Source: a virus
Virus record (IMG/VR): IMGVR_UViG_3300027111_000206
Span: 6,686-70,685 of that record
DNA length: 64,000 bases
Direction: 5' to 3' (one strand)
Shown: positions 49,641 to 49,751 of the stretch, piece after piece
How the letters are laid out: the number at the start of each line of letters is the position of its first letter
Numbering within the stretch: position 1 is the stretch's first letter
Made by a program: the position numbers and the translations under genes
Notes under the pieces: model-generated
Seen by the model: only the letters and a program-made list of their open reading frames with translations
Told to the model about the DNA's origin: nothing
The model's database searches: none

Positions 49641-49751
49641 TTAGACAATAAAAAGCCAAAGGCCTTTACCGGCGAGGCCTGTAGCTTTTTTTCGCTGATA
49701 CTGCTGCATCATCGGCGTGTGGGAGGACAGGTCGTTCACGGCTGTATTCAT
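49641..49751 (-). pseudogene. mutS: mutS 5' fragment truncated by the prophage junction ([36 protein letters not shown])
   Basis: HTPMMQQY is the conserved MutS N-terminal motif; homology stops after codon 18 (49698); mutS is the expected neighbour of this tailocin locus. Confidence 0.9.

Follow-up and report, generated by a model that had tools for sequence, protein, structure and literature searches.

We analysed a 64-kb window (64,000 nucleotides; G000:C1:6686-70685) of a 74,874-bp IMG/VR "provirus" record, together with the first 8,000 nucleotides of that record (C1:1-8000, locus L002). Positions given alone are those of the window. The window holds the greater part of a prophage, followed by bacterial DNA:

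1-49701: in-window part of the prophage, whose left limit is at G000:C1:2545, 4.1 kb left of the window
1982-3142, minus strand: reverse transcriptase (Pfam RVT_1)
48574-49529, plus strand: right-end lysis module (PHROGs)
48574-49017, plus strand: endolysin (PHROGs)
49014-49529, plus strand: Rz spanin (PHROGs Rz-like spanin)
49267-49482, plus strand: Rz1-like lipoprotein ORF, embedded in Rz
50008-50175, minus strand: 55-aa ORF on the bacterial side, upstream of the native mutS start
50172-50930, minus strand: gene of the zeta-toxin family, on the bacterial side (Pfam Zeta_toxin, E=5e-40)
51873-64000, plus strand: tailocin cluster resident at the mutS-cinA locus, outside the prophage
51873-52676, plus strand: PrtR/PtbA-like HTH-S24 repressor (Pfam Peptidase_S24 and HTH_3)
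59089-60327, plus strand: DNA-circulation protein (Pfam DNA_circ_N)
62393-63433, plus strand: baseplate J (Pfam Baseplate_J)

The prophage belongs to the lambdoid siphoviruses: its early-left operon is encoded by the minus strand, and its structural and lysis genes are encoded by the plus strand. Its matches in PHROGs include the terminase, portal, head morphogenesis, major head, tape measure, central fibre J, and tail fibre proteins, as well as the endolysin, the Rz spanin, and a DNA methyltransferase. The methyltransferase-like ORF is large (124-1941, minus strand), belongs to the early-left operon, and occupies a position equivalent to that of the characterised C4-cytosine methyltransferase of phage phiAH14a; L002:6809-7996 (minus strand) is the C-terminal part of the same frame, cut by the end of L002. 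Proteins with Lcl_C domains accompany the reverse transcriptase (1982-3142, 3768-4415, and 10817-11398, all on the minus strand), which is consistent with a DGR.

An earlier, sequence-only reading of this DNA noted that mutS flanks the tailocin locus, and the cluster at 51873-64000 agrees with this: a tailocin cluster at mutS-cinA is known in fluorescent pseudomonads (PMC2647930, PMC4684702). Zeta-type cargo beside tailocin clusters has also been noted previously (PMC4684702). Zeta-like genes recur beside the start of mutS in two contexts: in the bacterial flank and inside related elements. The IMG/VR record (G000:C1:1-74874) combines DNA of different origins: the whole mutS gene of the host at its left end, then the true prophage (53.9 kb), the native promoter of mutS, the zeta-toxin gene, and a partial tailocin cluster. 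Its first base coincides exactly with the mutS stop codon.

The right junction of the prophage (attR) has the following features:

49702-49715, minus strand: attR core, CCGATGATGCAGCA (from four-way and pairwise alignments)
49751-49641, minus strand: chimeric orphan ORF of 36 codons, 18 from MutS and 18 from the P' arm of the phage
49716-49751, minus strand: native bacterial mutS codons 1-12, ATG...ACG (same N-terminus in uninterrupted mutS)
49752-50007, minus strand: native mutS upstream region, the presumed carrier of the promoter, now about 54 kb from the gene body
49651-49690, both strands: terminator-like hairpins on the phage side of attR (pattern matches only)
49575-49582, minus strand: TATTAGAC repeat, a putative arm-type integrase-binding site (P'-arm copy)
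49639-49646, plus strand: inverted repeat copy with one mismatch, TTTTAGAC, which overlaps the orphan-ORF stop codon

The sequence-only reading had proposed, from the orphan ORF, that the prophage is inserted in mutS. We matched 49751-49641 to the starts of uninterrupted Pseudomonas mutS genes: the 18 codons and about 160-310 nt upstream have 84-97% DNA identity to these starts in many Pseudomonas species. This excludes a chance match and, on alignment evidence, makes 49751-49641 the displaced native 5' end of mutS. In particular, the orphan start (49751-49698) matches the native starts of more than 20 uninterrupted mutS genes and of a metagenome contig (X4). The upstream region is native as well: it is 93% identical over 310 nt to the DNA before an intact mutS (genome G143). 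When we used the native upstream region and start as the query, we obtained matches in 332 of 401 sampled Pseudomonas species genomes, and most of these 332 genomes keep the proximal 160 nt or so of the upstream region. A scan of this region (49752-50007) for the sigma-70 consensus gave no match.

The orphan ORF stops at a TAA (49643-49641) that lies inside the inverted arm-type repeat. Comparable orphan ORFs, with 12-25 extra codons, are present in three other lysogens (L017-L019). Just beyond the stop, a promoter/terminator pattern scan detected a plus-strand hairpin at 49660-49680 and a minus-strand hairpin at 49667-49651, each with a T tail. The predicted plus-strand hairpin would end the late/lysis transcript of the phage, and the predicted minus-strand hairpin would end the transcript that starts at the native promoter of mutS. 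All that this promoter region would now drive at attR is the 36-codon chimeric ORF.

The gene body had been predicted to lie beyond the left edge of the window, along with an integrase and a second copy of the core motif. All three are present in the record to the left of position 1:

C1:1-2601, minus strand: mutS, an intact ORF of 866 aa, 4 kb left of the window
C1:2544-2531 (same in L002), minus strand: attL core, CCGATGATGCAGCA, the same as the attR core
L002:2618-2611: the other exact TATTAGAC repeat, immediately beyond the int stop codon
C1:2619-3596, minus strand: tyrosine integrase (325 aa; PF00589, E=2e-14)
C1:3609-3833, minus strand: DUF4224 protein, candidate Xis/excisionase (74 aa), upstream of int

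The second copy of the core motif is CACACCCCGATGATGCAGCA, with one mismatch to the string that had been predicted, and mutS continues from it with WRLKNQHP. Only 17 bp separate the end of the integrase gene from the mutS ATG; both genes are on the same strand, and the integrase gene is thus within 300 bp of mutS. A Pfam MutS_I search of the whole record gave one match (C1:2212-2547, minus strand), and the core is duplicated at attL.

Of the two outcomes that the sequence-only reading had offered for the gene, a substitute 5' end from the phage or a lysogen that is deficient in mismatch repair until it loses the prophage, the first is what we observe. The 866-aa ORF is complete, its five MutS domains (Pfam MutS_I to MutS_V) are all full length, and its start lies beside the phage integrase; therefore, mutS is unbroken and the substitute start comes from the phage. 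With the ATG at C1:2601 as the start, MutS would be 7 aa longer than the native protein. We favor this start because every relative has a legitimate start codon at that position: ATG in this phage and in L015, GTG in L069 and L071, and TTG in L005 and L010. An in-frame TTG ten codons downstream, which would give MNTDVSSH..., remains an alternative. Among the related elements, the imitation of the mutS start (the decoy) comes in two types: a short one, MTDLSSH..., and a long one, MS(N/I/K)RQ...(N/D)xxSSH..., whose start codon is inside the second repeat. The decoy of this phage is of the long type.

A mutator lysogen, with mismatch repair disabled by the insertion and restored by excision as in a SpyCI-like switch, is nevertheless worth weighing, since the native promoter and first 18 codons are 54 kb from the mutS body, and neither a strong Shine-Dalgarno sequence nor a consensus promoter was seen ahead of the substitute start. 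However, native Pseudomonas mutS genes likewise do not have a strong Shine-Dalgarno sequence, and the mutS frame is complete, so the idea of a deficient lysogen has no support at the ORF level. More than 60 related elements keep the substitute 5' end with an open frame and a valid start codon, which is what selection for a working mutS predicts. Also, for E. coli 536, B. multivorans CF2, and P. putida F1, Chu et al. inferred an in-frame mutS coding sequence both with the element in place and after its excision (PMC5296598). We consider it extremely unlikely that this insertion disables mismatch repair.

Both attL and attR carry the identical 14-bp core, which encodes P-M-M-Q-Q of MutS, and the two cores are 53,856 bp apart. 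Thus, the insertion point lies within the HTPMMQQ codons of mutS. The sequence-only reading was right about this motif but had placed the insertion right after it; instead, the crossover is inside it, at the core (49715-49702). The core is embedded in a 24-bp stretch (49722-49699) in which attL and attR differ at two bases. These are diagnostic: on one side of the core, the phage has C and the host has G, and on the other side, the phage has G and the host has A. Beside the attR core, we find G at 49716 (the bacterial type) and G at 49701 (the phage type). The flanking bases are therefore swapped as expected for P-O-B' and B-O-P', which places the strand exchange inside the core.

The other two forms of the site were also recovered. 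In a four-way alignment, the empty site of a related genome (L023) consists of the left arm of attR, the core, and the right arm of attL. Conversely, an attP-form IMG/VR contig whose integrase is 95% identical (L069) consists of the left arm of attL, the core, and a right arm like that of attR. The attP form is also known from phiAH14a, from phage F_TK1718sp/PAK (whose integrase is 55% identical and is followed by MNKPNTDIAQHTPMMQQ and then a stop), and from a total of 7 IMG/VR contigs.

Empty attB sites, with an uninterrupted mutS and the same N-terminus and upstream DNA, were found in more than 20 to more than 25 Pseudomonas species. Among the best loci for the native start, all 28 that we inspected outside of Pseudomonas sp. 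ANT_H12B (G001) have an uninterrupted mutS, and most of them share one N-terminus. Another of the best 30 loci (L017) is the orphan end in G001, which is itself a lysogen. Metagenomes provided further junctions. The mutS body on soil-metagenome contig X4 (3.3 kb) has 1 mismatch in 1052 nt; X4 leaves L002 at position 2551 and continues with 30 nt that are identical to 49752-49723, which is the native start. In a root metagenome (X1), one contig bridges attL without a mismatch. We also considered whether the empty site in X1 might come from a cured cell, but it has a different mutS allele and so belongs to another strain.

The arrangement is widespread. Across 62 IMG/VR loci with related integrases (48-95% identical), 39 have the attL form, 7 have the attP form, and 16 are without the motif. 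About half of the 16 are cut off by a contig edge right behind int; in the others, int and attP are probably separated by more than 1.5 kb of cargo. A peptide-pattern search of GTDB genomes found loci in P. fungipugnans, P. lactis, P. parakoreensis, P. putida, P. oryzihabitans, P. songnenensis, and P. kitaguniensis, among others: a full-length mutS lies downstream of the integrase at 11 of 12 loci, and the remaining locus is cut off by a contig edge. Of 401 Pseudomonas species genomes that were sampled evenly, 12 (3%) contain an integrase that is at least 59% identical, and mutS lies at most 1.5 kb downstream in 11 of these 12 carriers. The element with the most similar integrase in GTDB (90%) is that of Pseudomonas sp. 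ANT_H12B (G001:C19:63097-79685; L017, L005, L022), where the orphan start and the int-mutS junction are about 16.5 kb apart. This is much less than the length of a full phage, and the element may be either a satellite or a prophage in decay.

More distant integrases set a limit to the family. Within 1.5 kb of integrases that are 30-37% identical, in 400 sampled genomes from the class of G001, we found no HTPMMQQ motif. An E. coli phage integrase that is 27% identical adjoins tRNA genes and not mutS. The 76 nt that are recorded after int in Bordetella phage PHB09 (42% identical) do not contain the motif, but this stretch is too short to be informative. Overall, the clade of integrases that demonstrably target mutS starts at about 48-59% identity.

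These data also bear on whether the arrangement might be an immobile remnant or an artefact of assembly or binning. The boundaries of the IMG/VR record are indeed wrong on both sides, taking in host mutS and part of the tailocin cluster, and the particles of phiAH14a were reported to be tail-less and non-plaquing (PMC4936722). However, the attL junction is bridged by the X1 contig and the same junction occurs in dozens of independent genomes, which argues against an artefact. As for a remnant, the integrase, the Xis-like gene, and all of the morphogenesis and lysis modules are open, and a 95%-identical integrase lies on an attP-form contig. A remnant or artefact is therefore very improbable.

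Taken together, the most probable explanation, in which we have high confidence, is that a complete temperate siphovirus related to phiAH14a sits in the 5' end of mutS, having used a 14-bp core, and that the gene is kept full length by a start from the phage. The anatomy of the locus, the relationships among the att sites, the integrity of the ORF, and the recurrence of the arrangement are observed directly. In this explanation, the tyrosine integrase of the phage recombined attP with the HTPMMQQY codons of host mutS. Immediately behind the int stop codon, the phage attP has an imitation of the 5' end of mutS, which comprises arm-type repeats, a start codon, and the codons as far as HTPMMQQ. 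By integrating, the phage swaps the native promoter and the first 18 or so codons for its own, and mutS stays in frame. The native promoter and 18 codons are stranded at attR, where they run into 18 phage codons, a stop, and the terminator-like hairpin. In the free phage, the minus-strand hairpin would instead end a transcript of int and the decoy.

The remaining parts of such a module are recognizable in the arms. Between the int stop codon and the substitute start, the block TAGTATTAGACA-N10-GTCAAATAGACAG is conserved in all 14 of the aligned elements, and it is kept in three elements that have an insert between int and the block. The TATTAGAC repeat has just two exact copies in the 72 kb that we searched (the window and L002), at 66 bp and about 120 bp from the cores, on the phage arms, with imperfect copies nearby. 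It is found at the same place in the attP sites of phiAH14a and L069, and GTCTAA is at an equal distance from the core in phiAH14a and other elements. From their positions, we suggest that the TATTAGAC-type repeats are arm-type integrase-binding sites. At the sequence level, the locus thus has the parts of a lambda-type integration module: a PF00589 integrase, identical cores, repeats on both arms, and an adjacent candidate Xis.

What drives mutS in the lysogen is less certain. We infer a phage-borne promoter, either in the P arm of about 75 bp or upstream, with read-through from int; if so, the level of MutS may differ from that in a non-lysogen. A consensus promoter scan of the P arm found none. 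The lone sigma-70-like match (9 of 12 positions; L002 2756-2727) is inside the 3' end of int; we rejected it as the mutS promoter because it is weak and is not conserved in relatives. In RNA sequencing runs, 5-6% of the sampled words were present, a level that is consistent with conserved pieces of mutS from other organisms. An insert of about 1.1 kb lies between int and the decoy in several elements (L005, L008, L016, and many IMG/VR loci). In L005, which is the only one of these that we inspected, the insert contains a visibly similar zeta-like gene of about 0.9 kb (5176-6054, minus strand) on the opposite strand to int. Because int and mutS are separated by a divergent gene in some relatives, we tentatively place the promoter in or near the conserved P arm.

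This leads to another possibility, which extends the preferred explanation and is not exclusive of it: mutS might be intact but its expression or regulation might be substantially changed by the phage upstream region, so that lysogeny or induction would tune the mutation rate. For instance, Int or Xis might bind at arm sites that overlap the start, or induction might lead to read-through from the early-left operon. The entire upstream region has been exchanged, and the conserved putative arm-type repeats overlap the start codon as well as the 5' UTR. The location of the promoter at or close to the P arm, as suggested by the divergent zeta-like genes, would also fit. However, we identified no LexA box, repressor operator, or recognizable promoter in the phage-supplied upstream region, and although 3% of the sampled Pseudomonas species genomes carry such elements, they have no known association with mutators. 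We view a substantial regulatory change, including the examples above, as possible but rather unlikely.

A more specific version of this idea is that the phage-supplied mutS leader is a regulatory device that sets the level of host MutS, for instance by reducing it during lysogeny or upon induction, and thereby raises the phage's own DGR mutagenesis. In Bacteroides, MutS suppresses DGR retrohoming by 5-10-fold (bioRxiv 10.1101/2024.11.15.621889), so if there were such a coupling, re-wiring mutS could increase the phage's own targeted mutagenesis. However, searches for homologues of this reverse transcriptase found none in phiAH14a or in two further genomes with mutS-targeting elements. One other carrier, P. 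fungipugnans (G002), does encode a 93%-identical reverse transcriptase, but about 900 kb from its mutS prophage, which implies that the DGR module moves independently of the mutS-targeting integrase. We therefore rejected a coupling of DGR to mutS as a general feature, and because mutS is also intact, it is highly doubtful for this phage.

Our preferred explanation, a temperate phage that supplies its own start for mutS, can be compared to several known systems. First, phage phiAH14a (KU708004; Dziewit and Radlinska 2016, PMC4936722) has an integrase that is 75% identical to this phage's. The two are similarly organized, with int at the left end and endolysin and Rz/Rz1 at the right end, and similar in size (55,060 bp for phiAH14a versus 53,856 bp for the prophage). 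After int, phiAH14a has TATTAGACA and AATAGACAG repeats, as in this phage, and then ATG-ACC-GAC-CTC-TCC-AGC-CAC-ACC-CCA-ATG-ATG-CAG-CAG-TAT, unrelated codons, and a stop. This mimic of the MutS N-terminus is an unannotated 32-codon ORF (KU708004.1, L003:1-261). Because of this ORF, we assign mutS as the attachment site of phiAH14a, whose genome came from induced particles. The paper on phiAH14a mentions neither mutS nor an attachment site, and its authors found no excisionase (PMC4936722); in this prophage, the corresponding place holds the DUF4224 gene. The two phages differ in their decoys, which are of the short type (MTDLSSH...) in phiAH14a and of the long type here.

Second, the tailocin papers (PMC2647930, PMC4684702) describe the same locus, with a full prophage that has its own regulatory and lysis modules beside the resident tailocin. 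They describe the location of the prophage as intergenic, whereas the junction here is inside the mutS coding sequence, with a 5' end supplied by the phage.

Third, the sequence-only reading had compared the insertion to SpyCI of Streptococcus. SpyCI, a phage-like chromosomal island in mutL of Streptococcus pyogenes, is likewise mobile, sits in a mismatch-repair operon, and can alter the mutation rate. As published (PMC4129442; see also PMC5296598), its integration stops the transcription of mutL, which leads to a mutator phenotype; it provides no substitute, and its excision is dynamic. In contrast, this prophage provides a substitute 5' end and leaves the gene whole. Judging from the DNA, it is not a SpyCI-type on/off switch: the substitute start is present and the ORF is intact.

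Fourth, the sequence-only reading had mentioned a Vibrio element in mutS at the same motif. This precedent is real, and it covers Pseudomonas too: Chu et al. (2017, mBio 8:e02045-16; PMC5296598) reported that, across Beta- and Gammaproteobacteria, mobile elements are inserted in mutS at the HTPMMQQ motif, with V. splendidus 12B01, E. coli 536, P. putida F1, and B. multivorans CF2 as examples. Pseudomonas appears about 27 times in their Table S2, including P. fluorescens WH6, P. synxantha BG33R, and P. chlororaphis O6. Thus, the phenomenon has already been published for this genus, and our locus is a clean new example. The elements of Chu et al. and this prophage have in common the target motif, the orphaned host start, the start and upstream region that are supplied by the element, the integrase beside mutS, and a gene that is kept in frame. 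The protein beside mutS in E. coli 536 is the remnant of a DUF4102/P4-type integrase that is oriented divergently from mutS, and BLASTP found no similarity between it and this integrase (E=16). More than one lineage of integrases therefore appears to use the motif.

What this locus adds is a fully resolved case of a temperate phage that attaches within a repair gene with an essential function and leaves this gene unbroken. Independent data yielded all four forms of the site (attB, attP, attL, and attR), and an attachment site can be assigned to a published phage, phiAH14a. Whether swapping the promoter and N-terminus of mutS affects the mutation rate is a question that was already posed in 2017. 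Chu et al. observed scarless excision by PCR in E. coli 536, B. multivorans CF2, and P. putida F1, whereas excision from V. splendidus 12B01 deletes 2 bp and gives rise to hypermutators (PMC5296598). Here, unlike in 12B01, the 14-bp in-frame core and the observed attB predict that precise excision would restore native mutS without a scar.
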